A DNA stretch of 52,407 nucleotides from a virus. Both the position numbers and the translations under genes were made by a program. Positions 7,588-22,988 of the stretch are shown here, in pieces. The stretch lies in the UHGV virus genome UHGV-0113213. One strand, 5' to 3'. The stretch's first letter is position 1. Each line of letters begins with the position of its first letter. Below the pieces are notes generated by a model. That model saw only the letters and a program-made list of their open reading frames with translations, was not told the DNA's origin and made no database searches.

Positions 7588-7633
7588 TTACTCAAACGGA
7601 AGCATAGTTAACAAAATGGCGCGGAGGTGCGTT

Positions 7634-8150: not shown

Positions 8151-8159
8151 GGCGGCAAC

Positions 8160-8408
8160 ATGGGGCGGCGCAATCACGGTGATTATGTGTACACGTTGAA
8201 ACAGGCCGCCCGCCTCATCGGTTATCATGAACACGAATTTATTGATTTGCTGATTGAGCGCGGGATACTGTACCAGGTCTGTTTAACGCTGTACCCGAAA
8301 GCGAAATACCTACATGAAAAGTTATTCATCATCATGACGGATGAAAACCAGGTTAACCATTCATTCGTCACTGATAAGGGCGTTAATTATCTGCGTGATA
8401 ACTTATAG
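8160..8408 (+). CDS. Small protein (82 aa) with possible HTH (YTLKQAARLIGYHEHEFIDLLIERGIL), moron gene 3
   Basis: ORF 10 nt after previous stop; helix-turn-helix-like segment by eye. Confidence 0.5.
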   Translation: MGRRNHGDYVYTLKQAARLIGYHEHEFIDLLIERGILYQVCLTLYPKAKYLHEKLFIIMTDENQVNHSFVTDKGVNYLRDNL

Positions 8409-8530
8409 GTGACTGATTATAAAAATAAAAGTTTTGGCGCTAATAATAATGGGGTTGATAGTATTTGGCGTTCATGCTGTAGATCTGGACTGGAAAACGA
8501 TAGCAGAAAATATAGCATTAATGGAAATAG

Positions 8531-8568
8531 AATAAAAATAACCCCGCTTCGCGCGGGGTCGTGTTTAT
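8531..8568. terminator. Bidirectional terminator after moron cassette (stem CCCCGC/GCGGGG; stronger U-run on minus strand)
   Basis: Hairpin with A-run upstream and T-rich run downstream on plus strand. Confidence 0.55.
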
Positions 8569-8762
8569 ACGCCATCAACCAAAAATAAAACCTCCTTCCC
8601 TTCCCGGGATCTACACCCAACGTACCCATCACCAACGTCGTGAAGATACCATATATCGCCGTTGTCAGCTTTTACAGTAAGGTCGTTGATCTCATAGTCG
8701 TCAAACAATGTAAAAGCGTAAGTTTTGTCAACTACACAAGTCCCGTACATAACAACCCCCAT
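8565..8762 (-). CDS. Small protein (65 aa) inserted between M and L; member of the small paralog family seen at 28676-29581
   Basis: Start overlaps M stop (TAATG); shares C...F...Y and D-x-G-D-x-W-Y motif pattern with the tandem paralogs. Confidence 0.5.
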   Translation of the reverse strand: MGVVMYGTCVVDKTYAFTLFDDYEINDLTVKADNGDIWYLHDVGDGYVGCRSREGKEVLFLVDGV

Positions 8763-9115
8763 TAGCCAACAACTTGCTCAAACGTTGCGTTTAGCGTGTA
8801 CAAAGGCCCGTCTTTAGTCATACTCCATTGCCGACAGACAAAAAGCCTTTGCACGTTATCCATTGACGGCGACCAGTAAAAAGCCTCGACCGCGCCGCGC
8901 GCCCTCAAGAATGCTTCCGCCTGGATTGCTACGTTTCCACCATCACCACATCCGGCGCTACTGCCTTTAAACACCAGGGTGTAGCTATCAAGCAATGGAT
9001 TGATACCTTTTACCTGTCTTTGCTCATAACCATCGCCCAGCTTAACAACAGATACGTCTGGCTTCCTGGTCACGCTGTAGCTTCTTTGCGGCGTCCATCT
9101 GAACACTTCCGGCAT
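8762..9115 (-). CDS. M: Minor tail protein M
   Basis: 117 aa; FRW, GDGY.QR, ATFEQVV motifs as in lambda M; GGGGG RBS. Confidence 0.8.
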   Translation of the reverse strand: MPEVFRWTPQRSYSVTRKPDVSVVKLGDGYEQRQVKGINPLLDSYTLVFKGSSAGCGDGGNVAIQAEAFLRARGAVEAFYWSPSMDNVQRLFVCRQWSMTKDGPLYTLNATFEQVVG

Positions 9116-9150
9116 AAAACCCCCACAAGTTACATTTTGTATATATCTTT

Positions 9151-9178
9151 ACGCGCTTCTACGCGAAAAATAAGATCA
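9151..9178. repeat. TACGCG direct-repeat element TTTACGCGCTTCTACGCGAAAAATA (copy 1)
   Basis: Near-identical 25-27-bp copy at 21418-21445; both lie just upstream of minus-strand structural genes (M, portal). Confidence 0.6.
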
Positions 9179-9200
9179 TTGTCACAATGATTATAGCTAG

Positions 9201-9242
9201 TTTACAAAATGGCTTCACATAGCACGCAACAAGATGTATATA
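9201..9242 (+). promoter_or_regulatory. Moron promoter: TTTACAAAATGGC element, -35 TTCACA (9214-9219), 17-bp spacer, -10 TATATA (9237-9242)
   Basis: Read directly; about 40 bp upstream of the 9283 start codon. Confidence 0.5.
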
Positions 9243-9282
9243 GAAAGCAAGAAGAAAGTAGTACCAACGAAGGAGGCCCAAA

Positions 9283-9438
9283 ATGAAACGCTATGTAGTA
9301 GTAATGCTAAATAACGCATTCGAACAAGTGGAAATAGCAATCGTTAAGGGTTTCGACGACGCATTCAAATACGGTCAATTCATGATGAATGCGAAAGAAG
9401 ATGAATACCGGGACTTCTTCCTGAAGGCACTTAACTAA
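9283..9438 (+). CDS. Small protein (51 aa), moron gene between M and H (not in ORF track, below 60 aa)
   Basis: ATG preceded by AAGGAGG RBS; MKRYVVVMLNNAFEQVEIAIVKGFDDAFKYGQFMMNAKEDEYRDFFLKALN. Confidence 0.5.
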   Translation: MKRYVVVMLNNAFEQVEIAIVKGFDDAFKYGQFMMNAKEDEYRDFFLKALN

Positions 9439-9455
9439 GGATGATGGGGTGAGTT

Positions 9456-9710
9456 ATGAAACTGGTAGCGATTGACAGAAATCTGAAAGCACAGAAAAAC
9501 GCACAGGACCGGATCATCAAGAAAGGTAAGGAATTACTTAAAGCCTTTCTGAGAAAAGAAGTTTACCCCAAAAAGTTACGCGACGGTTACGGATACAAAA
9601 TGGATATCAATCTTGATTGGAGGCTGTTTAGCGAAGATTTGAAGGTTTGGTTAATTGTTGAGCACCGTGCCTATAACAAGTTATGTGGCGTGAAAGGCAC
9701 TCATAAGTGA
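9456..9710 (+). CDS. Small basic protein (84 aa), second gene of M-H moron
   Basis: RBS GGGGTGAG; Lys/Arg-rich; followed by terminator. Confidence 0.55.
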   Translation: MKLVAIDRNLKAQKNAQDRIIKKGKELLKAFLRKEVYPKKLRDGYGYKMDINLDWRLFSEDLKVWLIVEHRAYNKLCGVKGTHK

Positions 9711-9761
9711 GTCGAGATATTCGAAAGGGGATATATCGCGCGGAATGGTCGTTTATAAATA

Positions 9762-9801
9762 CGAAAAATAACCCCGGCATTGCACCGGGGTTTAGTTTAT
9801 T
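9762..9801. terminator. Bidirectional rho-independent terminator (stem CCCCGG/CCGGGG) after moron and after H
   Basis: Hairpin flanked by A-run and T-run; H stop codon lies in the T-run. Confidence 0.65.
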
Positions 9802-12139
9802 TGCGGCGAGGTTGCAACATTCCGCCTGGTCTTTGAGATTCCCTTGTTATCATTTTCATGGCTACACGTTCCATTGTTAATTCAAGTCTGCGGCTGTCTT
9901 CGTCGCTGAATCCGTTCGTGGTCTGAATGCTGATACTGACAGGCATACTAATACCGCCACCGCCGCCAATATCACGGCCCGGAATAACTCTGCCGTTCTC
10001 GCCAGGGATCATATATTGATTGCCGTTAGATGTCTGGAATAGCTCCGGCCTGTTGTGTTCCCCTACGCGGTACATATTACCACCAATGACGCTACCACCA
10101 TTAAAGCGACCGCCGCCGAAAATTGACGTAGCCAGCGACATGATCGCAGTGAGCGCCGCCGAACCAGCCGCCGCCCAGCTACCGCCAGTTGACGCCGCAG
10201 TTGCCGCCGCTGCTGGGGCCGCCGCCGCAGCAATGCTTCCCTGAGCTGCTACCGCGCTTGCTGTTGTACTTGTTTGCGTGGCCTTGCTTTGTGTCTCCAT
10301 CATGATCTGATCTGCTATCCAGTTTGCAGCTATGTCTGAGAGTCTGTTACCGATATTGCCGAGTATATTGCTTCCTAAGTTAGCAAAAACATCACTCAAT
10401 GATTGAGTGCCGTTTAACAGGCCAACAAGCGCATTACTCATTCCGCCTTTAAGGCCATTAACACAATCACCGATAAGGCCGTTTGTGTCGCTTTGCGCCT
10501 GCCATTGTTCCCATTTCAGATCGCGGATCTGTTGCTCATAGGCTAACAATTCCTGTTTCTGTTGCGCTTCAGTAGCGCCCAGGTCTATAAGCATTTGCTT
10601 ACGGATGGCCCATTCATTTTGCGCCTGCTGGATGGGGTCAACTTCGCCTTTTAGCTGATCCATCGGGCTTACTATTTGTGACCATTTATCACGCAATTCA
10701 TCTACCGGAATTTGTGCTAATTCTTCTTTCAGTTCCTTGCCGATCCCTTTTTGCGCGGCGCGGTACTCAAGGAGCGTGATTTTACCCTGGGCAAATGCAG
10801 CATCAATGGCCTTGCCGTTCTCCAACGCTTTGCGCATGGCGGCGGCGTCTTTGTTGTACTGATCAGAAACGCTTATACCTTTGTCACCAAGCCGATCAGC
10901 TTCCGATTTCTTCTCTTTTTTCTGTTTTTTCGGCTTGTCTACTGGCTTGTCGAATCCGGTAATCGCTCCGTCATTGGCAGCATTCTGTTCATTTTTCCTT
11001 GCTTCTTCTGTAGCCTGGATTGCTGCGGTCAGATCATCCTGTAGTTGCATGACCTTGCCAACGGTCTTCCCGTATTTCTTCTCGTAGTTGCTGTTATATT
11101 CGTCGGTTTGCTCTCCTACTACCTCCTTCATCCATTTATAGCCATCCATTAGCGCCTTGATTGGCGTCACCATTGCGATGATCTTCTCTGCCACCTCTCC
11201 AGCCTTAACAGCCACATCATCAAACATGTCGATAAATTCGCTACCAGCCGTTTTGAGTGTGTCGAAGCAGGTTTTAGCGAATTTAGCGCCATCGCCAAGC
11301 CCTTTAACGCCTTTCGTGATCAAGTCGATAGCTGAAACAACGCCATCTGACACGCCAAAAAGATCATCCAACTGCTCAACAAGGCCCATAATTTCTACTT
11401 TAAGCTCATTGATAGCCATGCCGGATGTGCGCGGCAACTGAGCAAACTTATCGTTTGTTTCCTGCGTAGCCGCCTGTATTGCGTTAACCATCCTTTCAGC
11501 CGTGATCTTGCCGTCCAGCATTTCGGCGCGGAACTGGCCCATTGATAATCCCATATGGCGGGCCATTGTTTGTACGATGGTCGGCGTATTTTCAAGCAGG
11601 CTGTTAAATTCTTCGGCACGAAGAACACCGCCGTCGATAGACTGACGGAATTGACGCATTGAGTTAGACATCTGTTCCGCTGACGCGCCGCCTAATGCAC
11701 CCATTTTCTGAATAGTGCCAACCAGGTTAAGCAATTGCCCTTCCGTAGCGGAGGTGTTTTTTAGTGAGATAGCCAGGCCTTGCCATAATTCGCCAGTATC
11801 TTTCAGGCTCTGCCCCGTCTCCCTGGATATTGCTTTCAGGCCGTCGAAAACCCGTCCGGCGGACTCCGCATCGCCCGTAAGCATTTTGATTTTTACGCGA
11901 AGCATTTTTGCTTGCTCCGCCATATCCATAAATTGGCGCACAGCCTCCGCAGCAATTAGCAGATGGATAACCCTGGTCAGTGCCTTGATGGATGTTTTCA
12001 GGGTGTTTACCTGGCGGTCAGCCTGTTTTGCGCCGCGCTCTATACGATCAAAGGCCTGGTCTGCCTGTCGTTGTGCAACGAGAAGTTGACCAGTTTTCGC
12101 ATCAACTTCGTAATAAATTGTACCTACACTGGTAGCCAT
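9797..12139 (-). CDS. H: Tail tape measure protein H (780 aa)
   Basis: Long alpha-helical/Ala-Gln-rich protein with Gly-rich C-terminal region; position upstream of M-L-K-I-J. Confidence 0.85.
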   Translation of the reverse strand: MATSVGTIYYEVDAKTGQLLVAQRQADQAFDRIERGAKQADRQVNTLKTSIKALTRVIHLLIAAEAVRQFMDMAEQAKMLRVKIKMLTGDAESAGRVFDGLKAISRETGQSLKDTGELWQGLAISLKNTSATEGQLLNLVGTIQKMGALGGASAEQMSNSMRQFRQSIDGGVLRAEEFNSLLENTPTIVQTMARHMGLSMGQFRAEMLDGKITAERMVNAIQAATQETNDKFAQLPRTSGMAINELKVEIMGLVEQLDDLFGVSDGVVSAIDLITKGVKGLGDGAKFAKTCFDTLKTAGSEFIDMFDDVAVKAGEVAEKIIAMVTPIKALMDGYKWMKEVVGEQTDEYNSNYEKKYGKTVGKVMQLQDDLTAAIQATEEARKNEQNAANDGAITGFDKPVDKPKKQKKEKKSEADRLGDKGISVSDQYNKDAAAMRKALENGKAIDAAFAQGKITLLEYRAAQKGIGKELKEELAQIPVDELRDKWSQIVSPMDQLKGEVDPIQQAQNEWAIRKQMLIDLGATEAQQKQELLAYEQQIRDLKWEQWQAQSDTNGLIGDCVNGLKGGMSNALVGLLNGTQSLSDVFANLGSNILGNIGNRLSDIAANWIADQIMMETQSKATQTSTTASAVAAQGSIAAAAAPAAAATAASTGGSWAAAGSAALTAIMSLATSIFGGGRFNGGSVIGGNMYRVGEHNRPELFQTSNGNQYMIPGENGRVIPGRDIGGGGGISMPVSISIQTTNGFSDEDSRRLELTMERVAMKMITRESQRPGGMLQPRRK

Positions 12140-12159
12140 GATTTAACCTCATGCAAAAA

Positions 12160-12221
12160 TGTGATCTGTGTATCTATTTTATACAAAATGGCTTTACTTC
12201 AACGACTCCATTTTGTATAAG
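12160..12221 (+). promoter_or_regulatory. Lipoprotein moron promoter: CRP-like TGTGATCTGTGTATCT (12160-12175), TACAAAATGGC, -35 TTTACT (12193-12198), 17-bp spacer, -10 TATAAG (12216-12221)
   Basis: Read directly; CRP-like centre ~61 bp upstream of predicted start site. Confidence 0.45.
12179..12220. repeat. Perfect 13-bp inverted repeat TTATACAAAATGG / CCATTTTGTATAA with 16-bp spacer in the H / lipoprotein divergent region
   Basis: Arms at 12179-12191 and 12208-12220 are exact reverse complements. Confidence 0.75.
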
Positions 12222-12266
12222 GAAGCTAAAGGGAATGGTCAGTAAATCAAGTTAGCGTGGTGGGTT

Positions 12267-12926
12267 ATGAAACGGTTAGCAAAAGTGGCAATGATTGCGG
12301 CGGTATTGGGTCTGGTTGGTTGCAATGAGGATAATGAAAAAGCGCCTATAGTGACCAATCAAGAGCAACAAGCATTAGTAGAGAAAAATGCTAAATGGCT
12401 TGCAGAACAACAAGCAAAACAAGCCGCATACGATGCACAGTTAGAAAAAGAAAATGCTGGTAAACAGTGGCTTGTAGTTGAAAGAAAAGATGATATGCAG
12501 GACGCAAAAAACGTATTCCTTTTTGTGAAAGCAGAACAATTCAGCGGAAGTCTTGATGCTTTCCCGACACTGAAGGCACAGGATAAGAATAAACCGGTAT
12601 TAACAATCGCTTGCCAGGGTAATAAAACAAAAATGTTCGTAGCATGGTCACACCATGTAACTGACGCCGGGGACACTACTTATATTAACTACCGGATCGG
12701 CGTTCACAAAGCTGTAGCTACTGAGTGGTGGCGGTCAACTAATTATAAAGCTCTTGGATTATGGGACGGCAAAAAAGCCATCCCAATGATTAAAAAACTG
12801 GTTAACGAAAAACAATTCATCATTGAAGTAGTGCCGGAAGCTGGCGACATTGAGAAAGCAGTGTTTAACATTGATGGTCTTTATAACCACATCGACAAAG
12901 TGAAAAACGCTTGCAACTGGAATTAA
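12267..12926 (+). CDS. Lipoprotein (219 aa), moron between H and tail chaperone
   Basis: Signal peptide with lipobox LVGC (MKRLAKVAMIAAVLGLVGCNE); opposite strand to structural operon. Confidence 0.7.
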   Translation: MKRLAKVAMIAAVLGLVGCNEDNEKAPIVTNQEQQALVEKNAKWLAEQQAKQAAYDAQLEKENAGKQWLVVERKDDMQDAKNVFLFVKAEQFSGSLDAFPTLKAQDKNKPVLTIACQGNKTKMFVAWSHHVTDAGDTTYINYRIGVHKAVATEWWRSTNYKALGLWDGKKAIPMIKKLVNEKQFIIEVVPEAGDIEKAVFNIDGLYNHIDKVKNACNWN

Positions 12927-12936
12927 GGGGTAAATC

Positions 12937-13311
12937 ATGAAAAAAATAATCAAAGCGGTTCTCATTGGTGTTATGGCTTTAGCTCTTACAGGGTGCGCAA
13001 GATCAACTGATTTCGTTAAGTTAGCTGATAAAAATTTGCAAGTTGGAATGACTTGTGAGCAAGTGAATAAAATAATGGGGGAACCACAAAGAATCGAGCA
13101 TGACGGTAATTATAGTTATCACGTATGGTATTCAGTAACCAGCACGATAGGATTTACTTACATGGATGTTGAAGAATTATCCCCTTCAAGGGTTATCGCA
13201 AAGTTTGATAACTGCATCCTAAAAGAATGGAAAGATCGCAGTAAGGCAAAGTCTGTATACAATACAATCACACACAGTTCACCAGGTACAGCAATTAAAG
13301 ATTTCAATTAG
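12937..13311 (+). CDS. Lipoprotein (124 aa), second moron gene
   Basis: Signal peptide with lipobox LTGC (MKKIIKAVLIGVMALALTGCA). Confidence 0.7.
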   Translation: MKKIIKAVLIGVMALALTGCARSTDFVKLADKNLQVGMTCEQVNKIMGEPQRIEHDGNYSYHVWYSVTSTIGFTYMDVEELSPSRVIAKFDNCILKEWKDRSKAKSVYNTITHSSPGTAIKDFN

Positions 13312-14002
13312 CAAAACGCCCGGATCTACCGGGCTTTTCTTGCTCACGATTTTTCATTCTTTCTAGTGCCTTTTTAGCGGCCTCCATTTGCTCGTCATAA
13401 GCACGTTTATTTATGTGAATGTTTGGCTTGCTTTTCTCGTTTCTTTCGTCTGGCGGCGTTTTAGCGCGTACAGCGGCCCTATATCCGGTCATTGTCATAT
13501 TCCATGCTTCCGATTCTGACAAGCCCAGGTGAGCAACGGCAGAATAGACGAATTCAAGGACGTTAAAAGTCGGCTTATATTCCCCTTCCGGGATTTCCCC
13601 GGACTCTTCTTCCGGGCCATCACCAATAAGACCGTGGTACATGCAGTGCTGCGCAAGCGTGATGATATCCTCGATCGGCATTAATCCGGGCTTTAACTTT
13701 AACTTACCCGAAGGAGTAAACCAGCATTCGCCCAATAACGGGCCTATTTCGTCGTCTGAGCAACATTTCAGGATGTGCATTGATGTCTGAACTATTTCAC
13801 CATAACACCGCGCCAGAATGCGATTGCGTAGGTCTGGATCTGCTGGCAATCGTGATGGATATTTGCCGCCGTGGATAAGTGCGAAATATTCGACAAGCTC
13901 ACTATCGTTGCCGATTTTAGCCATCGCAGCAAAGCAAGGATTAAACTCATAGCGCTTACCGTTCACCACGGCAGCAAATTGTCCTGTACGAACATGGATC
14001 AT
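13304..14002 (-). CDS. Putative tail assembly chaperone (G/GT analogue)
   Basis: Position between major tail protein and tape measure; acidic middle region; start moved to ATG at 14000-14002 with AAGGTG RBS; no frameshift site verified. Confidence 0.45.
   Translation of the reverse strand: MIHVRTGQFAAVVNGKRYEFNPCFAAMAKIGNDSELVEYFALIHGGKYPSRLPADPDLRNRILARCYGEIVQTSMHILKCCSDDEIGPLLGECWFTPSGKLKLKPGLMPIEDIITLAQHCMYHGLIGDGPEEESGEIPEGEYKPTFNVLEFVYSAVAHLGLSESEAWNMTMTGYRAAVRAKTPPDERNEKSKPNIHINKRAYDEQMEAAKKALERMKNREQEKPGRSGRFAN
13318..13342 (+). terminator. Rho-independent terminator after lipoprotein morons (stem GCCCGG/CCGGGC + TTTTCT)
   Basis: Hairpin followed by T-run on plus strand. Confidence 0.6.
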
Positions 14003-14011
14003 AGTATTCAC

Positions 14012-14039
14012 CTTAAAAGAAAAGGGGCCAAATGGCCCC
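14012..14039 (-). terminator. Hairpin plus U-run after major tail protein gene (attenuator/terminator)
   Basis: Stem GGGGCC/GGCCCC followed by T-run on minus strand. Confidence 0.55.
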
Positions 14040-14057
14040 GATTGTTAATATTGGCTG

Positions 14058-14534
14058 TTATGCTGGCGGAACGTCGCCTACCGTTACCTTGCCAGCGCTT
14101 TCGCACTCAATAGACCAGGTGGAAACATCATCATGCGGATCTTCTTCTTTAAAGGAAGTGCAAAGGAATGGGCCTTCAGTTACGTCTACAGGAGAAACGA
14201 TCTTCAGCCATACATAAGGTTGTGATCCGGTGGTTTCACCTGGCGTAATTACGTGGCGTTTCAGCGCTTTCTGATTATGGATTTCTTCAGTGCGGGACAC
14301 ACCGTCGCCGGAGAAAGAAACGGATTTGTAAGTAACCATTGATTCTTTCGTGTAATCGGCTGATTTATCGGCGGTGGCGTCAGCGGTTTCCCATTCAACG
14401 GAAAGTGTTTTACCACGCATCATGCCTAACGCTTTGTACGCTTCAGCTTCCGGCTTCGCATTTGGACAAGCGATAGCGAAGAATACAGCAACGTCACGGC
14501 CTGTAAACGTGCCTTTTTCGCAAGTCTGAGACAT
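14058..14534 (-). CDS. Major tail (tube) protein
   Basis: 158 aa, position upstream of chaperone/tape measure, followed by strong hairpin; composition typical of siphovirus tube proteins. Confidence 0.65.
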   Translation of the reverse strand: MSQTCEKGTFTGRDVAVFFAIACPNAKPEAEAYKALGMMRGKTLSVEWETADATADKSADYTKESMVTYKSVSFSGDGVSRTEEIHNQKALKRHVITPGETTGSQPYVWLKIVSPVDVTEGPFLCTSFKEEDPHDDVSTWSIECESAGKVTVGDVPPA

Positions 14535-14547
14535 GTTTAGTTACCTC

Positions 14548-14934
14548 TTATCTGGATATTATGGTTTGAAAAGCTACGGTAAAAATAAAGCGCCCTTCTC
14601 TCGTCTGCATTGCGGGAATAGCGCCAACTGGCTTCATGTGTGTAATTTTATCAGTTTTATACTCGGTTATCATACTTTGACGTATTGCGTCGGCGAGGTC
14701 TTCCACTTCACTAATATTTGCATCGTTACGCGCTGAAATAACCAGGATGCGAAAATAGTCACGGGTTATCGCCTCTTCTCCCGCCGCGCCGCCGTTTTGC
14801 TGTATGACAATATATCTGCTGTTATTCGAATTGGATCGCTCATTCCAGAAACGGGCCTGCAAAATATAACCTTCGTCGTACCCGTGGGATTTAATCCAAT
14901 CCCTTATTTCGTCGTAAACCTCGCTGCGTTTCAT
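14548..14934 (-). CDS. Tail terminator / tail completion protein candidate
   Basis: 128 aa, immediately upstream of major tail protein, ATGA-type coupling. Confidence 0.4.
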   Translation of the reverse strand: MKRSEVYDEIRDWIKSHGYDEGYILQARFWNERSNSNNSRYIVIQQNGGAAGEEAITRDYFRILVISARNDANISEVEDLADAIRQSMITEYKTDKITHMKPVGAIPAMQTREGRFIFTVAFQTIISR

Positions 14935-15371
14935 GTCTTGTAACCTTCTATAATCGTTTTATAAATATCGTCTGCGTTATCTGGTTCCTCGAATGCTTTG
15001 CGCAAAAATTCAGGCTCCGCGTTCGGATCCCAGTAATTACCCTTACCAGTACCGCCGCCAAATTCGACGCCTTCTCTGGTTTTACCGAAATGTTCGCGCG
15101 GCTGGCCTTTTAATGTGCCCGGCATGTCATGCACCCATTCAGCGTAGCGGGCGGTATAACCCAGACGTAATTGCATACCCTCAGGAGTGTCACCTATATA
15201 CTGGAATTGACTGTTAATTAAAAAACCAGTATCGATCGGCGTCATATTTGCAGCAAATCCACCAGCAACAAGCCCCACTCGCCATAATACATCGTGCGTT
15301 TTTCTGTCTGTAATTTCCTTTAGCTCCTGCTTCAATCGCTCCCTGACGCGTTTAACGCCCTTAATAGGCAT
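14931..15371 (-). CDS. Head-tail joining protein candidate (HK97 gp10-like)
   Basis: 146 aa in neck gene block; assignment by position and size. Confidence 0.4.
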   Translation of the reverse strand: MPIKGVKRVRERLKQELKEITDRKTHDVLWRVGLVAGGFAANMTPIDTGFLINSQFQYIGDTPEGMQLRLGYTARYAEWVHDMPGTLKGQPREHFGKTREGVEFGGGTGKGNYWDPNAEPEFLRKAFEEPDNADDIYKTIIEGYKT

Positions 15372-15373
15372 AA

Positions 15374-15763
15374 TTAACCCCCTGTTACGATCTTATAATC
15401 CGGCGTGTCGTTAAACATGCTCATGTCCCATTCAACGATTCCGGTTATAAAGTTGGCCCCAGCCGCCAGCGGGTCGGAAATAGCAGTAGTGTCACCAGTG
15501 GCAAGCATCCATCCTTTTTCAGGGAGCTGCACTGGCTGCATCTTGTGAAGCAGTTCGGTATATACGGTTATCGTGTTGCTAACCTCATTCCCGTTTGCGT
15601 CTGTTGCGGTTCCGTCAGTACGCTCCCATGCACAATCTACCAGGTATGGCGCACCGTATACGTCGGAGTTTGTCCAGTCGTCACGCGTTACGGGGTAAAT
15701 GGTGGCTAATGCCTTGTAACTGAATCTCGCGATCTTACTCATAGCCATAGCTCCATTTAACAA
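15374..15763 (-). CDS. Head-tail adaptor / head closure candidate
   Basis: 129 aa in neck block. Confidence 0.4.
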   Translation of the reverse strand: MLNGAMAMSKIARFSYKALATIYPVTRDDWTNSDVYGAPYLVDCAWERTDGTATDANGNEVSNTITVYTELLHKMQPVQLPEKGWMLATGDTTAISDPLAAGANFITGIVEWDMSMFNDTPDYKIVTGG

Positions 15764-15920
15764 TTTTCGGATGGGTTTTCGCCACGCGCGGGCAAAGAAT
15801 TACCCATTCGCCAGCATCATTGAGGTAGGCGGCTACCTGTCGCCCGGTGTCTGTCTTCACCCATACGCGGGTAAACAGTTTCGGCAATAACGGATCCGGT
15901 AATGTCAGGTCGTTCCACAT
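15735..15920 (-). CDS. Small structural-module protein (61 aa)
   Basis: ORF coupled to neighbours in neck block. Confidence 0.35.
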   Translation of the reverse strand: MWNDLTLPDPLLPKLFTRVWVKTDTGRQVAAYLNDAGEWVILCPRVAKTHPKIVKWSYGYE

Positions 15921-15922
15921 TG

Positions 15923-16309
15923 TTACATCCTCCCACTTTTACCTATCCAAAGCCCTGCGTGCGCGGTGTTTTCTGGATCTGCTGGAATCAGTTCGGCTGT
16001 ACAGTGATGTTTATCAATGGAGTAAAGCAACGAATAGGCCGCCTTCCATCGTTTGTTGAAATCGACATAGCGGTATGACTGACTCGCACCGTTCGGCCCA
16101 GTCTGCGAGGAAACGTATTTATCAGCCTGGCTTAGTCCTAACAGGCCAATCAGATAAAGCTGAATCAATGTTGCAGTGGAGGCCGGATAGTTGGCATCAA
16201 GGCATTCATTAACGCTATTTGCCTGCTCCACCAGCAAAGATAAGATAATGTCTGGCAGGTCAATACCCTGGCTTTCAAGATATTCCCGCGCCTGTTCTGT
16301 AGTGACCAT
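15923..16309 (-). CDS. Head completion / connector protein candidate
   Basis: Start moved to ATG at 16307-16309 (GGAG RBS) downstream of the post-capsid hairpin. Confidence 0.4.
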   Translation of the reverse strand: MVTTEQAREYLESQGIDLPDIILSLLVEQANSVNECLDANYPASTATLIQLYLIGLLGLSQADKYVSSQTGPNGASQSYRYVDFNKRWKAAYSLLYSIDKHHCTAELIPADPENTAHAGLWIGKSGRM

Positions 16310-16330
16310 TTTGTTTGCTCCACATACAAA

Positions 16331-16358
16331 AAAAATCCCCGGCATCGCGCCGGGGAGT
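16331..16358 (-). terminator. Hairpin plus U-run immediately after major capsid gene (partial terminator/attenuator)
   Basis: Stem CCCCGGCGCGATGCCGGGG followed by T-run on minus strand. Confidence 0.5.
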
Positions 16359-16374
16359 TACAGGAAATACGAAA

Positions 16375-17427
16375 TTATTTGTGACCGTAAACAACACCGG
16401 AACGGCCCAGCATGTCGCAGGTGATTTGTAAGCCTTCGGCAGACATGATTTTGAAGTTGTAGTTATCGGTAGGCATGGTGCGCGGCAGAGGCACTACGCC
16501 AGTAGTCATACCAACCAGCGGGGTAATGACGTTGCGGCGGCGTTGATAGGCAATGAACTCGTTGCCTTTCAGTGCATAGGTCTGACGGATTTCTTTAACC
16601 GGAATGAACGGTTTAACGATATTCAGAACACTGCCTACGACAGTCCCGTTTGCAATGTGCGGCGCTGCCAGGTTAGCCATAATTTCAGGTGACACCCACA
16701 TGAGATCATACTGGTCAACGCGGTTGTTGCGGGCCATAACACCGAATGCACCAGTGGTGAAGAATTTGATGAGAGCATCGAATCCGTCAGTGGTGAGATC
16801 TTCGGAGGTCATGACTAGTTGCTGGGTATTGCGGTGATTTTTAATACCCTGGCCAGGTTTACCGTTGACGTTGATTTTTGCGTTACCGTTAAGGTAATAA
16901 TCAACGCGGGCCTTGTTGAATTTTTGCAGTTTCAGGCGCTGGCTATCCAGTGCAAGGTCAATACCAACAGTTTTCAGACCTTCGGAATGACGCCAGCTGA
17001 CACCGTAACCCGCTGCGAACATCGGGATCGGGTCGCCATCGCTGCCATATTCAGTGTGATCGAAGCCATGCGGGGCTTGACCATCGATACTAACGACAAC
17101 TTCATCGTTAATATCACCGGATACGCTGTACATTTTCTCGGTTTTACCGATTGGCAATACGGTTTGCACAGCCATCAAATCGTTTACGATTTCAATACCA
17201 GTCTCTTCGGTGCTCATTTCGATAATCTGGTTATCGACAGCTTTCCAGAACTCCTGATCGAAGCCGCCAACGGCATTACATGCCAGGATGTCAGCGGTCA
17301 TGTTTGCCATATTTGCGGCAATAAGAGCGCCGTCCTGATCATTGAACATGTTGCGCTGCGCCCAAAGGTGATCCCACTGGGCACGAATGCGGCTGTTGGT
17401 AGCAAGGTTGTGTTTATTAAACAACAT
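16375..17427 (-). CDS. Major capsid protein (350 aa)
   Basis: Size and position after decoration and scaffold genes; followed by attenuator hairpin typical of highly expressed capsid genes. Confidence 0.75.
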   Translation of the reverse strand: MLFNKHNLATNSRIRAQWDHLWAQRNMFNDQDGALIAANMANMTADILACNAVGGFDQEFWKAVDNQIIEMSTEETGIEIVNDLMAVQTVLPIGKTEKMYSVSGDINDEVVVSIDGQAPHGFDHTEYGSDGDPIPMFAAGYGVSWRHSEGLKTVGIDLALDSQRLKLQKFNKARVDYYLNGNAKINVNGKPGQGIKNHRNTQQLVMTSEDLTTDGFDALIKFFTTGAFGVMARNNRVDQYDLMWVSPEIMANLAAPHIANGTVVGSVLNIVKPFIPVKEIRQTYALKGNEFIAYQRRRNVITPLVGMTTGVVPLPRTMPTDNYNFKIMSAEGLQITCDMLGRSGVVYGHK

Positions 17428-17446
17428 AGTTTTTCACCTCTTATTA

Positions 17447-17848
17447 TTATGCAACGCGGACACGTACAAAATCAGCCGCTTCAAGGGTTACAGTTTCCTG
17501 GCAGAAAGCGAAAACAGGTTCATCAGATGTAACCAATTTAAAGCCACCTTCACCAATGGTGATGGCAGCGTCTTTGGTGTAAGCACCTTCAGGAAGCAGA
17601 ATCGCAAATTCACGTCCTTCTTCTGCGTAGTCAGCAACCACGGAATGACCAACCGGGATCGCATCTTCAATGCCTAAACCTTCATGGTATGCCGGGTTAA
17701 CAACATAAATACGTCCTGTGGTATCAGTTGCGGCAGCGAATTTACCAGACGCCATTTTTACCGGAGTACCCGGCTTAAGTGCTGCGGCAGATACTGCTGT
17801 TTCAGTAACGGATTTGCCGTCAATATTTACACGACGAAAACGGGCCAT
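17447..17848 (-). CDS. Head decoration protein candidate (DUF2190-like)
   Basis: 133 aa Gly/Ala-rich protein directly upstream of capsid gene. Confidence 0.5.
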   Translation of the reverse strand: MARFRRVNIDGKSVTETAVSAAALKPGTPVKMASGKFAAATDTTGRIYVVNPAYHEGLGIEDAIPVGHSVVADYAEEGREFAILLPEGAYTKDAAITIGEGGFKLVTSDEPVFAFCQETVTLEAADFVRVRVA

Positions 17849-17858
17849 AATTCACCTC

Positions 17859-19145
17859 TTATGCGAAATAGTTGTTAATGTCAGGGGTGGCAGGTTTATT
17901 TCCACCAGCGGCTGAGTTTGCTGCCATTGGTGCTGCTTTACCCAGGGATTTAAACATTGCGTCTAACGCTTCACCACTTAATGCGTTAGCAACAATTTCG
18001 CCGTGTACTTTTGCTACTGCGGCGCGTTTTTCTGCTTCTTCTTTATTTGCGTTTGCTGCGATCTCTTCTTTAATCGCTTTCTGATTGGTCTGTAATTCTT
18101 CAACGCTTGCCTGTACTGGTTTTAATGCCTCTGCTACTGCATTAGCGATATTGGCGGATAAGCCTTCGTTAATTTCTTTTACCAGTTCGGCGCGTTCTTC
18201 TTTGGTCAAAGGCATGGGATCGTCCTCCGATTTATTGGCCTTAATTTTTTCATTCAGGGAGAAAAGATTAGAAAGGTGTTCAGCGAACTGCGTAAACCAG
18301 GATTTACTTTCCTCGTTGGTTGCAAGCTCGCCATTATTGAGAATAATTTTATCAGCCTGTTTTTCATATGCGCAAACTTGAGCACTTTCTGTATTAGTGG
18401 CGATCGTCACTTCTTTATCAGTGAAGTCCACCACATACACGTAATCGGCATCAGGAAATAATTCACGCGCCGCGTCGGTTAATTGTTTCTCAAGCGTACG
18501 GTAACTGTTTTCTTTCATTGCCACCGCCATTAACGGTTTCGCCTGGTCAGTATTAACCATCAACCCTACACCCTGTTCAGGTGATGCGGCTGGCGGCTCA
18601 TGCAGCAAAATAGCGTCATGGTCGATCGACATAATTTTTACTACATGGTCAGCGCCCTGGGCTTTCATCTCTTCAGTAGCTGGCATACGCTGACGATATA
18701 CAGCGACGGACGACCAGATAGGATCTTTGCTTTCTCCTTTCTCCAGTGCTTCCAGTCGGGTTAATAATTCACGCCCCTGTTCTGAATGGCTGGCTGTTTC
18801 AATATCCACCCATTTTTCCACATAAACACGATTGCCGCGTAATTCAACGTTTCTGTTCCACGCTCCACAAAACCCGGTGTTCAATCCTTCCGGGCTAAAT
18901 GCGGAAACAAATTTACCGTCAACGGTAGGATGACCCAGCGGGGCGAGTGTCCCCTCCAGTGACTGGTAATTAGCGATAATTTCAGCTTCCGGGTAATATT
19001 CACGATTCATAACGATATTGAATGGCAGCGTATATGATGGCACAACAATGTGCTCGCGTCCGTTATAAGTTTCCCGGCGTATGGTATTAGCGGTTAATTT
19101 GGTATTAACCTGAATCAGTTCTTTACTCACGGTTTTTACTCCCAA
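17859..19145 (-). CDS. Head scaffold / maturation protease candidate (DUF2213-like), 428 aa
   Basis: Position between head morphogenesis and decoration genes; C-terminal coiled-coil, Ala/Glu/Lys-rich. Confidence 0.5.
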   Translation of the reverse strand: MGVKTVSKELIQVNTKLTANTIRRETYNGREHIVVPSYTLPFNIVMNREYYPEAEIIANYQSLEGTLAPLGHPTVDGKFVSAFSPEGLNTGFCGAWNRNVELRGNRVYVEKWVDIETASHSEQGRELLTRLEALEKGESKDPIWSSVAVYRQRMPATEEMKAQGADHVVKIMSIDHDAILLHEPPAASPEQGVGLMVNTDQAKPLMAVAMKENSYRTLEKQLTDAARELFPDADYVYVVDFTDKEVTIATNTESAQVCAYEKQADKIILNNGELATNEESKSWFTQFAEHLSNLFSLNEKIKANKSEDDPMPLTKEERAELVKEINEGLSANIANAVAEALKPVQASVEELQTNQKAIKEEIAANANKEEAEKRAAVAKVHGEIVANALSGEALDAMFKSLGKAAPMAANSAAGGNKPATPDINNYFA

Positions 19146-20077
19146 TCTTCGCCATATTTAGCGTGCGCAACTTTATAGTTTTCTTGCGCCCGATCTAATA
19201 TTCGTTCGTTTAATATGTTACCGTCTTCGTCAACTAATACGGTAATCGTGCTACATTTGCAGTTAATTGAATTAGGGGATCTACTCCACCATTCGCGCTG
19301 CTCATCTATGGTGTATGTTTTACCGTGCCGCTGCGCGTGCGATAGCCTGGTAGTCGGTGATAATGCCGAAATGTGCATTTGCATAGTGCGCAGATTAAAT
19401 TCTTCTGTCGCCGCTTCTGCCTCATCCATACGCGCTGTGCGTAACGCTGTGCATATTTCAGTTCGAGCAATACGTTTACACCTGTATAGCGGTAATTGCG
19501 TCTCCTGATTCAATGTGCGCGCTATTTCCAGTGGGTTTAAACCACGGGCCATGCCTTCAGTTAATCGCCGGGCCATATCCTTTTTGATCTGTGCGGTCAG
19601 CCCGCGCATTTCCTCAAATACACGGGTACGGACCAGAGCAAGGCGTGTTCGGTAAGTTGTACTGGATAACACGGCAGATACATCGGGATAAACGCTTGAG
19701 TACGTGACAGACTGGTTAGCAAGGTTGGCGTATTCCTGTGCCGTGCCTCGCAGATACGCGACCTTCACGTATTCCTGCCAGAACCAAAAACTTTCCGGGT
19801 CGGTTAGCTCGAATATCTCATCAATCATGTCGCTGGCGTCCTCCAGCATGTCGTGCAATTCATCCATGTAAATCTGGAAGGTATATTTCTTATTAACAGC
19901 CAGGCTATATTGTATTTTGTCCAGTATGGCGATATATGGATCGGCTACTTTTTTCAGGCAGGATTTGAAACGCTTAATAGCGCCAGACCTCAACCTCCCT
20001 GTCATGGTCGGGTCTTCGGTGTTAGATGGCATTATCGCGGCTGGAGGTATTCGCCTGATTATTTTCTTCACCTTCAT
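19136..20077 (-). CDS. Head morphogenesis protein (SPP1 gp7 / Mu F-like minor head protein)
   Basis: 313 aa directly downstream of portal; start codon uncertain (alternatives at 20032, 20005). Confidence 0.6.
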   Translation of the reverse strand: MKVKKIIRRIPPAAIMPSNTEDPTMTGRLRSGAIKRFKSCLKKVADPYIAILDKIQYSLAVNKKYTFQIYMDELHDMLEDASDMIDEIFELTDPESFWFWQEYVKVAYLRGTAQEYANLANQSVTYSSVYPDVSAVLSSTTYRTRLALVRTRVFEEMRGLTAQIKKDMARRLTEGMARGLNPLEIARTLNQETQLPLYRCKRIARTEICTALRTARMDEAEAATEEFNLRTMQMHISALSPTTRLSHAQRHGKTYTIDEQREWWSRSPNSINCKCSTITVLVDEDGNILNERILDRAQENYKVAHAKYGEDWE

Positions 20078-21395
20078 TGTCGTTTTCCTCGTCGTCCAGT
20101 TCTACTTCCTGCGTTGGCCCTTCATACCCGGCAGCCTCGCGGATCTCGTCACCGTCGAATACTTGTTCACCTGTGGCGAGACATGCCTGATTGATTTGCG
20201 CCATTTTGTATGCCGCGTCGAGTAGCTCGGCTTTCGTCATGGCGTTAAGGTCGTCCCACAGTACCGACACGTCGACTGGCATACTGATAAGGCGGAGATC
20301 TGCCATCTTGCGGAATAGTTCCTCAAGCTCGCCTCCTATTTCCTCCCGGCGGGTCATACAGCGGTTATTGAAGTAGCGGAGGTCTTCGGTTGATGCACGC
20401 TCACCCTGCTGATTCCCAACCAGGATACGCGTTGGAATGTCGATACCAGCGGCGGCGGTTTGCAGGTTGACGTCATAGGTAGCTGATGGATCCGCCACGG
20501 CAGTAACCAGCGGGCTAACGGTAGCTCCCTGTAATGCCATCATCACATCATTCCCTTTGTTTATATCCTCTGCCGCTTCATTGAATTTTTCGCGCAGCTC
20601 TGTAACGTCGCAACCGTATGTCGCAGCCAGGGAACGGAAATCAATCTCTTTGTCGAATGAGATAGCTAGTTGACGCGCTGCGTTTTTCAGAAAGGATTCA
20701 CCGCTACCGCCTTCCACTTTCTCCAGCGATACAAAAGCGTTATAGGACGGCTCAAGGAAAGCGATGGCATCATCAGAATAATCACCGAAGATAAATATGC
20801 GATCTGGATGTATCTTTCTTGCTATGGTCTTACTGTTAATGCGCTCCTTGTATTCCCACCATGTCGGCAGGCCATAGCTTTCACTTTCCGGATCTTCTTC
20901 GAAGTCCTTCGGTGTAAGAGCACCAGCCCATACAGGGGTAAATTTGGCAATGCCTACACCTTTCGTCACTGGCTGATCCCACGGCTGGTTATCCCTGACG
21001 TGAATTAACAGGCCAGCATAACGACCAATGAGGCGGCGGCGATCGCATTCAGCTATGACGCGCCAGAAACGATTATCAAATCGTTTTTTGATTTCTCTTT
21101 CCCACGGCGTTTCCTTTTTTGCTTTCTCGTCTTCCGTACCTTCGATCAGCGTTGGCCTGGTGCGCCAGCACGTAGTGATGATCTTCTCAATAGCACCGTG
21201 AGCGATACCACCGCGACGATACAGTTTGTATAAATCGGCATAGGTGATTTCTTCTTTGAATCCGTATTCACTCCACGCAGCATCACGCTTTGCATCAATA
21301 CCCATTGAGAAAGGATGCGCGGCGGCATAGCGTGCAAAGGCCGCCTGACGTTGTGACAAGGCAGCATTAACCGCCAATTCTAAATTGGATGGCAT
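20022..21395 (-). CDS. Portal protein
   Basis: ~457 aa downstream of TerL; start moved to ATG at 21393-21395 (AGGAG RBS 7 nt upstream). Confidence 0.75.
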   Translation of the reverse strand: MPSNLELAVNAALSQRQAAFARYAAAHPFSMGIDAKRDAAWSEYGFKEEITYADLYKLYRRGGIAHGAIEKIITTCWRTRPTLIEGTEDEKAKKETPWEREIKKRFDNRFWRVIAECDRRRLIGRYAGLLIHVRDNQPWDQPVTKGVGIAKFTPVWAGALTPKDFEEDPESESYGLPTWWEYKERINSKTIARKIHPDRIFIFGDYSDDAIAFLEPSYNAFVSLEKVEGGSGESFLKNAARQLAISFDKEIDFRSLAATYGCDVTELREKFNEAAEDINKGNDVMMALQGATVSPLVTAVADPSATYDVNLQTAAAGIDIPTRILVGNQQGERASTEDLRYFNNRCMTRREEIGGELEELFRKMADLRLISMPVDVSVLWDDLNAMTKAELLDAAYKMAQINQACLATGEQVFDGDEIREAAGYEGPTQEVELDDEENDNEGEENNQANTSSRDNAI

Positions 21396-21417
21396 AATGT
21401 TTACTCCTGAATGCATG

Positions 21418-21445
21418 TTTACGCGTTGCTACGCGAAAAATAGAA
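21418..21445. repeat. TACGCG direct-repeat element TTTACGCGTTGCTACGCGAAAAATA (copy 2)
   Basis: Near-identical to 9151-9178; between TerL stop and portal start. Confidence 0.6.
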
Positions 21446-21473
21446 AAATTCGTGATGGATTGTGAGATGTTTT

Positions 21474-22988
21474 TTAAAATCCGCGCAGGCGCTTAGGTAA
21501 CATAAGGCCCATTGCCTGTGGCTGGCTTAATTCAGTGATACCCCACACCATAGCGTCGAGGCGGTCAGGTGATTTTTTAGCGGTAGCTGGCACGTATTCC
21601 ATCATTTGATTTTCCAGCGTGTACAGGCTGCCTGTGTGGGCCACCCTTCCTTGTGCATACAGTGCCGATATTGGCTCGGCGCGGGCGAATTTACCCTTGC
21701 TTGCGTGCACCTTAACAATGCGGCCTTTGAATCCGGCGTTACGTAGCGTGGCCTCTGCCATATCACCACCCTGGTTGGTTTCGATAACCATCGCGTCAGC
21801 TTCATGGATGTTGTAGGCGTTCATTGCTGCTTGCGCCCAGTCATTAGGTGACATGCGTCCTGAGTAGTCACCGTCTACTGAATACTGAGCATTCTTGCCA
21901 CCACCATAAGCGGAACAGGCTACAATCCCTGTTTCGTCTGACTCATCAGATGATGTTGTCGCCGGGTCGATGGCTATCACCGTGCGAATTTTCTCCTGCG
22001 TTATCTGCATCCTGTGCGCGGCGGTTATCATCGCTTCAGTCCACAATGCGCCCTCTTGATCGAACTTGCGCGGACACTGCATATATTGAGCTTCGAATGT
22101 TCGGCGATGTGATTTAAGAGTTGATTCATCTTTATCACTATGCTTATGCAACCATAGCCAGCCATCCGGCAGGTTGTGAGGAACAGGAATAGCAAATTTG
22201 TTTTCCGGGTACAGATCCCAATAGTCAAGACTGTTGTCGATCTTCACTGGCAGGCAAAGGTGATGCCATTTCTCACCACTACCGCCACGTAACAGGTAGC
22301 CGGATAAATCATCGTAGTGGATACGCTGCATGATGACGATCACTGGCGTTGTTTGCACAGCCAGGCGCGAAGAAAGCGTGTCGTTGTAATTGGTATTAAC
22401 CTGCTTTCGCACCACATCAGAATAAGCGTCAGCTGGTTTCAGGGGGTCATCAATAATCATTGCGCCGTTAAACCCAGGTTCCATGTACCCGGCGCGGAAC
22501 CCTGTCACCTGTCCAAGCGATGACGTCGCATACACGCCGCCACCCTGAGTGGTCCACCACAGGTTTTTCGCGTTCGAATCGTTGCGCATTTGCATAGGCC
22601 ACAATTCCTGATATTGCGGCATCGTGATTATGTTTCTTGTCTCTGAGGAATTAAGCAAGGCGAGTCCGTGTGAATACGATACATGCAGGAATCTGGTGCG
22701 GGGTTCTATTGCGAGGCAGCGGGCCATCATGTGAATTGTGGCAATCATTGTTTTGCCATAGCCCGGTGGGATGTTGATTATCAACCTGGTGATTTCACCA
22801 TTAATAACTCGTTGTAGCGTATCGGCAATTATTCTGTGATGACGCCCAACCAAAAAGTCCTTGCCAACCTGTTGCTTATAAAAGTAGGAACTAAAAAACA
22901 AAGGTGCTGATATGTCTTTGGGGGCACAACCTTTAACACACAACCCCCTTAGAACCTCTCTGTCAATCTTTGTCGTCGCAGTCTCCAT
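21474..22988 (-). CDS. terL: Terminase large subunit
   Basis: 504 aa; Walker A-like PPGYGKT; C-terminal nuclease-type acidic motifs; position before portal. Confidence 0.9.
   Translation of the reverse strand: METATTKIDREVLRGLCVKGCAPKDISAPLFFSSYFYKQQVGKDFLVGRHHRIIADTLQRVINGEITRLIINIPPGYGKTMIATIHMMARCLAIEPRTRFLHVSYSHGLALLNSSETRNIITMPQYQELWPMQMRNDSNAKNLWWTTQGGGVYATSSLGQVTGFRAGYMEPGFNGAMIIDDPLKPADAYSDVVRKQVNTNYNDTLSSRLAVQTTPVIVIMQRIHYDDLSGYLLRGGSGEKWHHLCLPVKIDNSLDYWDLYPENKFAIPVPHNLPDGWLWLHKHSDKDESTLKSHRRTFEAQYMQCPRKFDQEGALWTEAMITAAHRMQITQEKIRTVIAIDPATTSSDESDETGIVACSAYGGGKNAQYSVDGDYSGRMSPNDWAQAAMNAYNIHEADAMVIETNQGGDMAEATLRNAGFKGRIVKVHASKGKFARAEPISALYAQGRVAHTGSLYTLENQMMEYVPATAKKSPDRLDAMVWGITELSQPQAMGLMLPKRLRGF

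Follow-up and report, generated by a model that had tools for sequence, protein, structure and literature searches.

What function could a 25-nucleotide sequence serve that a phage genome carries twice, nearly letter for letter and 12.3 kb apart, in front of two structural genes? The window analysed here, a stretch of 52,407 nucleotides, belongs to an E. coli phage of the mEpimmI (mEp021-like) group, in which the minus strand carries the late genes. A preliminary description of this DNA had pointed to TACGCG repeat elements upstream of the minor tail protein gene M and of the portal gene; both sequences are present, but its first interval lay about 3 bases off and both intervals were 3 bases too long. 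The two copies and their neighbourhood are as follows.

9148-9172 (+ strand coordinates), sense minus: element copy 1, TTTACGCGCTTCTACGCGAAAAATA, in the 5' leader of M
21418-21442 (+ strand coordinates), sense minus: element copy 2, TTTACGCGTTGCTACGCGAAAAATA, in the 5' leader of portal, in the terL-portal gap
8762-9115, minus strand: minor tail protein M gene (PF05939 Phage_min_tail, E 1e-27; annotations of relatives agree)
20022-21395, minus strand: portal gene (PF06381, Phage_portal_3), directly 3' of copy 2
21396-21417, minus strand: remainder of the portal leader, CAUGYAUUCAGGAGUAAACAUU, near-invariant (pi 0.008)
9214-9242, plus strand: divergent sigma-70-like promoter TTCACA-17-TATATA, of the plus-strand cassette
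9283-9438, plus strand: 51-aa protein of this cassette
9456-9710, plus strand: ParE-like toxin of this cassette (ParE_like, E 2e-11)
9770-9792, both strands: bidirectional terminator-like hairpin in the gap between the tape-measure gene and the plus-strand cassette

As had been described, the two copies are near-identical (23 of 25 positions, with differences at element positions 9, C/T, and 11, T/G), each contains TACGCG twice with a 10-bp period (at 9150 and 9160 in copy 1, at 21420 and 21430 in copy 2), and both stand on the coding strand 5' of structural genes, M and portal. Direct repeat is a correct description but leaves something out: CGCG is self-complementary, and the same bases therefore also form an inverted repeat. 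Both copies are oriented in the late-operon sense inside 5' leaders, 22-32 nt 5' of the start codons (32 nt between copy 1 and that of M). The portal start is at 21395 or, alternatively, at an in-frame ATG at 21416, 2 nt from copy 2, and the terL stop is at 21474. The Shine-Dalgarno distance is about 10 nt for copy 2 (portal AGGAG) and about 22 nt for copy 1. The first 7-8 nt after copy 2, CAUGUAU, also follow copy 1 in mEp021-type genomes, giving a common unit of about 34 nt; beyond it the flanks share no significant similarity, for which reason a duplicated promoter-leader cassette was rejected.

The genome-wide search for further copies that the preliminary description had called for returned only these two in the window: the 25-mer with up to 3 mismatches gave exactly 2 matches, against 0.00 expected from 100 dinucleotide shuffles, and allowing up to 6 substitutions added a single poor match within a coding region (6424-6448). 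Fuzzy searches at the same limits (≤3 and ≤6 mismatches) found no additional copy in the 41-kb stretches of relatives. TACGCG alone is not enriched in the window (41 observed vs 33 expected).

Comparison with relatives had been proposed as the test that could reduce the pair to a chance duplication. Using samples anchored on the M and portal proteins and not on the motif, we found the element at both junctions throughout, in 31/31 mEpimmI relatives at M and in 50/50 at portal, and a metagenome scan anchored on the portal leader recovered it in all 23 further loci, with no new stem variant among them. Conservation in all relatives excludes a chance duplication. Outside the group, none of 49 M homologues from more distant phages carries the element, and it is likewise missing from more distant phages whose terminase and portal genes are homologous; in Klebsiella phage RAH1 it is absent and the terL-portal gap measures only 15 nt, and a capsid-protein scan of genome contigs for wider relatives found nothing. 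Nucleotide diversity (pi) is 0.057 for copy 1 and 0.015 for copy 2, compared with 0.22-0.33 at third codon positions, which places the element on par with non-synonymous codon positions and shows strong purifying selection on it. Judged from these sequence comparisons, it is a real, selected and mEpimmI-specific cis-element, apparently a control signal of an ordinary kind. The paper on mEpimmI phages makes no mention of it, and a literature search by sequence string gave one unrelated match only.

In which form does this signal act? RNA, with a post-transcriptional mechanism, is the most likely active form as against DNA, and we tentatively propose that the element works as a stem-loop in the sense strand of the late transcripts, as a recognition or processing signal. 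The predicted structures are:

9152-9165, minus strand: core stem-loop of copy 1, UAUUUUU-CGCGU-AGAA-GCGCG-U-AAA in late-mRNA sense, with flanking U/A pairs between 9166-9168 and 9148-9150
21422-21435, minus strand: core stem-loop of copy 2, UAUUUUU-CGCGU-AGCA-ACGCG-U-AAA in late-mRNA sense

In general form, 5'-AUUUUU-CGCGU-[AGNN]-RCGCG-U-AAA-3', a U-rich tract would precede a stem in which four G-C pairs are joined by a closing U·R pair and, across a bulged U, by three U-A pairs. An RNA-binding protein of the phage or the host may recognise the hairpin, or RNase E may cut in the AUUUUU tract and leave a hairpin-capped 5' end; either way the signal would set the stability or translation of the mRNA segments that open the head module and the tail-tip module.

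The pattern of natural variation is what argues for RNA. Changes fall mainly in the three bases between the repeats, which in the RNA are loop or closing pair (triplets AAG, CAA, AAU, AGG, CGA, CUA and AAA in relatives). The stems of copy 2 are unchanged in 73 loci, and the variation of copy 1 is mostly in the loop. Of 24 distinct variants, 20 have U·G or U-A at the closing position. All substitutions seen in the stems are C to U (UGCG..CGCG and CGCG..UGCG); they leave G·U pairs in the minus-sense RNA and would put A·C mismatches on the other strand. This argument from G·U pairing draws on two or three lineages, and transitions such as these are the commonest class of substitution. In one natural variant, CGCG-UAGAU-CGCG, a loop base is deleted and the repeat spacing falls from 10 to 9 bp, a change predicted to be harmless to the hairpin while it breaks the 10-bp period. 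The T-run and AAA flanks are mutually complementary, though they lie outside the direct repeat.

The preliminary description had listed an RNA element among the possible roles and asked for structure prediction of the minus-strand transcript. The minus-strand reading does fit the variation pattern best and both copies can fold in that sense, but neither folding energy nor covariation gives proof. These are small hairpins: copy 1 folds at -10.6 kcal/mol (z -2.05 vs shuffles), compared with -5.6 kcal/mol for its plus-sense RNA, and the core of copy 2 at -6 kcal/mol (z -0.67), so that the hairpin is thermodynamically weak and its stability against shuffles is not significant at either copy. No pair shows a change in both of its bases, and the share of paired cells, 91%, does not exceed that in shuffles; the stems are near-invariant, and since they hardly vary the covariation test is without power. 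An Rfam covariance-model search of the whole window gave no match at the gathering threshold, and around the two sites only chance-level matches (E 0.5-4) without meaningful overlap with the element.

The same bases can be read as DNA. A less likely but serious rival is a double-stranded operator. A pair of protomers of a DNA-binding protein, from the phage or the host, would occupy two YTACGCG subsites arranged in tandem at a distance of one helical turn and so regulate or block transcription at the head and tail-tip module starts, the hairpin potential being a by-product of the self-complementary CGCG. The perfect 6-7 bp direct repeat with its 10-bp period at both sites suggests this, as do the variable bases, which are exactly the spacer between the subsites, and the weak hairpin without covariation. 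The invariant TA beside each CGCG follows if it belongs to the repeated unit, and membership in a repeated CGCGTA unit is indeed the simpler explanation for the conserved UA(G) on the loop's 5' side. There are precedents among phage regulators with tandem-repeat sites: the site of Q21 (the Q-binding element, QBE) consists of two 8-bp subsites in direct repeat, and lambda CII binds TTGC-N6-TTGC, in both cases two identical direct subsites about one helical turn apart, as here. The 9-bp spacing variant speaks against an operator, and single-subsite variants alter the same repeat position in either half while RNA pairing is kept. No conserved sigma-70 promoter lies at a sensible distance on either strand at site 2, and the other two divergent gaps of the tail region (7505-7634 and 12140-12266) are without the element. 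Nor does the region resembling the main late promoter pR' carry it (promoter and terminator 5' of the holin gene, 26804-26703, minus strand), so the element is not a Q loading site; its likeness to the QBE (Q21/Q82-type) is in form only, with an unrelated sequence, a position away from the Q-dependent late promoter and YATTTT preceding the repeats. Unlike Q21 QBE and lambda CII sites, it has no conserved -10 or pause element downstream in the required order, and an activator site of either kind was rejected for want of a properly spaced -10 and for the missing copy at the pR'-like region. A binding site for a late-gene regulator, as had also been suggested, thus survives as a viable rival in DNA form, but the variation fits RNA better. 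Likenesses noted by eye to CpxR sites (GTAAA-N5-GTAAA) and to ops were dropped because the invariant CGCG is not in those motifs. On the plus strand, a sigma-70 promoter TTTACG-17-TAAGAT was likewise rejected: its -10 is not conserved (TAAGAT, TGAGAA, TGAGAT, TGATAA or TAGAAA in relatives) and a promoter scan did not call it. The plus-strand cassette has its own conserved promoter (9214-9242, hexamers kept in relatives, spacer variable) and does not need the element as one.

Two candidate promoter motifs, and the three nut sites of the window, bear on the remaining explanations.

9190-9195, minus strand: perfect TATAAT, candidate -10 of an internal M promoter (pi 0 in 26 distinct relatives)
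9213-9218, minus strand: weak -35 GTGAAG of the candidate M promoter
42083-42067, minus strand: nutR1 boxB GCCGC-UGGAAGU-GCGGC
34843-30, minus strand: nutR2 boxB GCGC-UGAAAU-GCGU
near 43300-43345, plus strand: nutL boxB

A small palindrome, ATCATTG..CAATGAT, lies between the TATAAT and copy 1 and is out of register in relatives. An unlikely reading takes the element for the leader of an internal late promoter cassette, in which RNA polymerase would start at TATAAT (9190-9195) or at its copy-2 counterpart CACAAT (21459-21464), the YATTTT followed by GC-rich CGCG would be a sigma-dependent pause or modification site, and transcription would be re-armed after terminators and convergent moron transcription. 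The TATAAT, 17 nt 5' of copy 1, is invariant amid varying neighbours, both copies have a -10-like YATTTT immediately before the stem, and M forms a transcription island between two bidirectional terminator-like hairpins (9770-9792 and 8540-8560) and two opposite-strand cassettes; the phage also encodes a PF03589 Q antiterminator, and Q systems use -10-like pause elements. Yet site 2 has only CACAAT/CACAAC, with a variable last base and no conserved -35, its sharing with copy 1 is unconvincing, and the similarity of the two sites 5' of the T-run is not significant (p 0.13-0.35). In known Q systems, moreover, the DNA binding element comes first and the pause element lies downstream, whereas the order here is the opposite, and the pR'-like region again counts against such a cassette. 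More improbable still is that the N-like antiterminator Gp17 binds the element as an additional nut hairpin of boxB type and so carries N-type antitermination into the late operon. Like lambdoid nut boxB hairpins, including the Gp17 sites, the element as RNA would be a small GC-stemmed sense-strand hairpin with a purine-rich loop and group-wide conservation. Its overall size and shape match the three boxB hairpins of the window, the copy-1 loop UAGAAG (variant UGGAAG) resembles the nutR1 loop UGGAAGU, and A-rich boxB loops have been described in published work on mEp021-like phages. All three nut-like sites, however, have a boxA, TGCTCTTTAAAAA or CGCTCATTAACAA, whereas nothing similar to a CGCTCTTTAACAA-like boxA occurs within 60 nt of either copy. 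The element loops (AGAA, AGCA, AGAG, AGCG or AGCU, or as hexaloop UAGNNN) begin with A and not G, are not GNRA-like and are free to vary at three positions, the copy-2 loop UAGCAA is unlike every nut loop, and the copies lie in late-gene leaders, not downstream of early promoters. A nut site was rejected on the missing boxA and the non-GNRA loop. An intrinsic (Rho-independent) terminator, which the GC-rich inverted repeat beside a T-run recalls, was rejected as well: on the late strand the T-run comes before the stem and on the opposite strand an A-run comes after it, so that neither strand has a stem followed by a U-tract, and a terminator scan of 7000-24000 called no site at 9148-9172 or 21418-21442. 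Least probable of all, in our view, is a recombination linker or gene-conversion tract without regulatory role. Site-typical loops occasionally swap sites (TAGCAA at site 1, TAGAAG at site 2), which hints at occasional gene conversion between the copies, a 70-nt indel lies just 5' of copy 2 in a subset of relatives, and the phage has genes for Erf, SSB and Abc2-like recombination functions. Against this, in all relatives both copies are flanked on either side by conserved, syntenic genes, so the junctions are not mosaic and the recombination hotspot once suggested finds little support; selection on 25-34 nt matching that on non-synonymous positions would be unexpected for a passive homology patch, and exchange between the direct copies would delete essential genes.

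The favoured RNA stem-loop has kindred among known leader hairpins. Hairpins in phage mRNAs include the MS2 coat-protein operator, the Mu Com target and the T7 intercistronic sites, and 5' stem-loop stabilisers remain after RNase E cleavage. Like phage translational operators and processing hairpins, the element would be a short 5'-leader hairpin near a ribosome binding site, here with a bulged base; as in operator and stabiliser hairpins, an AU-rich single-stranded tract lies on its 5' side and it is repeated before a few selected genes. Unlike these, its stem is too short for RNase III and its distance to the Shine-Dalgarno sequence is not fixed but differs between the two copies, which speaks against a mechanism that simply occludes the ribosome site. 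As a type of feature, a small conserved hairpin or operator in a leader is ordinary in itself and would not surprise specialists.

A bolder reading, to which we give little credence, makes the twin element the RNA or non-template-strand site of a dedicated mEpimmI factor acting only where the head and tail-tip modules are entered. It might be a loader for boxA-independent antitermination or anti-pausing, re-arming late transcription complexes, or else a translational governor coupling the output of portal and tail-tip protein. If true, such a factor would be a layer of late-operon control undescribed for lambdoid or other siphoviruses.

The mEpimmI phages are common temperate gut coliphages, a group defined recently, and their late-gene control is uncharacterised except for the predicted Q protein. 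The element, a non-coding signal present in two copies, is selected as strongly as protein sequence, and it can serve as a simple motif by which to diagnose the group. Because it stands where the head and tail-tip modules begin, it offers a concrete handle on the balance of structural genes, which may help to study how expression is balanced along a late operon that opposite-strand morons and terminators interrupt.

The window belongs to the mEpimmI (mEp021-like) group of temperate coliphages, its nearest records being MagusPhagus (about 90-92% identity), mEp021, 010, 013, 044, 515 and 554, and its minus strand carries the early-right, lysis and structural genes. Both sequences given in the preliminary description are real, each with TACGCG twice at a 10-bp period, and each lies upstream of a structural gene as described:

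9148-9172, + strand reading TTTACGCGCTTCTACGCGAAAAATA: copy 1, 32 nt upstream of the minus-strand gene M (8762-9115, Pfam Phage_min_tail)
21418-21442, + strand reading TTTACGCGTTGCTACGCGAAAAATA: copy 2, in the 57-nt gap from the terL stop (21474) to the portal gene (Pfam Phage_portal_3), both genes on the minus strand

The copies are identical at 23 of 25 positions and, with up to three mismatches allowed, are the sole matches in the 52.4 kb, with none found in 100 shuffles. The search for further copies across the genome yielded, at up to six substitutions, only one addition, a poor match within a coding region, and the TACGCG hexamer by itself is not enriched in the window. In the late-mRNA sense, the shared unit reads AUUUUU-CGCG-UAG-NNN-CGCG-UAAA-S-AU. 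The common unit reaches about 34 nt in mEp021-type genomes (30/34 identical between sites), and the similarity of the flanks beyond it is not significant.

Conservation was assessed by a motif search of IMG/VR, which returned 90 stretches, nearly all from 50-57 kb contigs of the mEpimmI group and only about four of them unrelated chance matches. Among the matches listed, 29 contigs have two copies and none has three. To avoid circularity, relatives were re-sampled with proteins rather than the motif as anchor. Within the best 80 M-homologue loci, the mEpimmI group accounts for the 31 with an identity of 82% or more, and every one of these has the element; it is absent from the other 49, which come from other phages at about 70% identity. 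It was found in 50/50 portal-anchored loci. Of 24 metagenome loci retrieved with the portal leader as anchor, 23 have it and the last is unrelated sequence. The comparison with related phages proposed earlier thus places the element at the M and portal junctions throughout the sampled mEpimmI relatives. In Klebsiella phage RAH1, the homologues of terL and portal are separated by a 15-nt gap with no element. Across distinct relatives, copy 2 has a nucleotide diversity of 0.015 and copy 1 of 0.057; in terL, portal and M the values are 0.22-0.33 for third codon positions and 0.015-0.065 for the first two. The element is therefore under selection as strong as that on positions that determine amino acids.

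The portal gene likely starts at 21395, preceded by AGGAG, with a second in-frame ATG at 21416. A search with 21380-21500, the region of copy 2, matched 34 of 5,426 complete E. coli genomes, where RefSeq/PGAP labels the following gene 'anti-CBASS protein Acb1 family protein', probably a misleading name for what Pfam assigns to Phage_portal_3. About one third of the relatives carry a 70-nt insertion directly after the terL stop (1053-1122 in the relatives' locus L178, equivalent to about 21473 in the window); inside it is a perfect 9-bp palindrome, CTTCGAAAA-A-TTTTCGAAG, and past the insertion the conserved element module restarts at AAAATCTG.

Together with a 65-codon gene, M makes up a small minus-strand island, bounded by two + strand cassettes and by a pair of bidirectional terminator-like hairpins, at 8540-8560 and 9770-9792. 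The M leader contains a minimal start-stop ORF, AUG-UAA (9127-9132, minus), present in all relatives, with a single variant, AUG-UGA, that is again a start-stop; no obvious Shine-Dalgarno sequence was seen for it. Opposite-strand genes of the late region are:

7634-8588, +: second opposite-strand cassette, between L and M
9283-9710, +: 51-aa ORF and 84-aa ParE-like toxin (Pfam PF24732, E 2e-11)
12267-12926, +: gene upstream of the tape-measure gene, T6SS VasI-like domain (PF11319, E 1e-15)

The 51-aa ORF and ParE-like gene lie between M and the tape-measure gene, are transcribed opposite to the late operon and likely constitute a toxin-antitoxin moron. One small product of the L-M cassette has an ANT/KilAC antirepressor-like domain (8160-8408, +; E 1e-6), a placement reminiscent of P22, whose immI region also lies among late genes. 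The + strand cassette adjoining copy 1, the one with the ParE-like gene, has its own conserved promoter, TTCACA-17-TATATA (9214-9242). A CRP-like candidate site, TGTGA-N6-TCTYA (9171-9186, minus; TGTGA-N6-TCTCA in most relatives), lies between an invariant TATAAT and copy 1, its centre about 70 bp before the point where transcription from the + strand toxin-antitoxin promoter is predicted to begin, a class-I-like position.

Elsewhere in the window, the motif ACAAAATGG is enriched, with 40 matches at up to one mismatch against 20 expected, a number not reached by any shuffle. It often stands directly upstream of -35-like hexamers (TAYACAAAATGG-N-TTNACN-17-TATAWN), and from this arrangement the sites look like a phage promoter family with a common UP-like or factor-binding element. 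An inverted pair of copies occupies 12179-12220. These and other regulatory features are located as follows:

584, 7611, 9204, 12183/12208, 28619, 34883/34947, 42389, 43232 and others: ACAAAATGG matches
26804-26703, minus: pR'-like arrangement upstream of holin, with promoter GTGAAA-16-CATAAT followed by about 60 nt of leader and a strong terminator
42104-42067, minus; 34863-34830, minus; and near 43300-43345, +: nut-like sites with boxA and a GNRA-like loop

A boxB-like hairpin, ACAAU-GCGAA-AUUGU, lies within the pR'-like leader. Conservation there begins at the -10, while the end of the upstream gene varies; mEp021 has a different sequence at this promoter.

The shared unit can fold as CGCGU-[AGNN]-RCGCG, with four G-C pairs, a U·G or U-A pair, and three U-A pairs that lengthen the stem beyond a bulged U. 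Standard pairs fill 91% of pair cells over 24 distinct variants, and 20 of these variants close the loop with U·G or U-A. Stem substitutions are C to U only, giving G·U on the late-mRNA strand and A·C on the opposite strand. Variation falls mainly in NNN (AAG, CAA, AAU, AGG, CGA, CUA, AAA); loop types are now and then swapped between the two sites, and one variant has a loop one base shorter, hence a repeat spacing of 9 bp. Folding energies are modest, at -10.6 kcal/mol for copy 1 and about -6 kcal/mol for copy 2 (z -2.05 and -0.67), with no compensatory double change at any pair and covariation not above shuffles. CGCG pairs with itself, and so a unit containing it will also resemble a hairpin whenever it is repeated in tandem; the hairpin reading therefore fits the data but is unproven.

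Several known identities were rejected. The element is not an intrinsic terminator, since on the late strand the T-run comes before the stem, and on the other strand the stem is followed by an A-run; nor is it a conserved + strand sigma-70 promoter, since the candidate -10 varies freely among relatives. It is not the Q loading site either: the phage has a Q protein (PF03589), and the pR'-like promoter and terminator just upstream of holin are devoid of the element. Q21, a characterised system, has its repeated DNA subsites upstream of the -10-like pause element, the opposite of the order seen here. Having neither boxA nor a GNRA-like loop, the element is not a nut site, and a boxB-like role for Gp17, the N-like antiterminator, is unlikely. 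The 3' half-stem of the nutR2 boxB with its flank (34843-34823, minus) reads GCGUAGAA, an 8-mer of the copy 1 5' stem and loop, probably a coincidence given the differing structural context. No Rfam family matched, one published account of the mEpimmI group leaves the element unmentioned, and a literature search by sequence string returned nothing relevant.

A role as a passive recombination linker is unlikely. We tentatively favor an RNA stem-loop on the sense strand, placed in the leaders of the genes that open the head and tail-tip modules and possibly acting as a recognition or processing signal, in which the AUUUUU tract upstream of the stem could plausibly offer a single-stranded site of RNase E or S1/Hfq type. 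The main rival, a tandem-repeat DNA operator for a putative regulator, is less probable, although it deserves consideration. It is rather improbable that the element is part of the leader of an internal late promoter: 17 nt upstream of copy 1 stands a perfect TATAAT that does not vary in any relative, but site 2 shows only CACAAT/CACAAC and the upstream flanks of the two sites are not significantly similar. Taken together, this two-copy cis-element is real, strongly selected, lineage-specific and not described before, but its general kind is familiar, and an RNA hairpin and a DNA operator are the candidate mechanisms.
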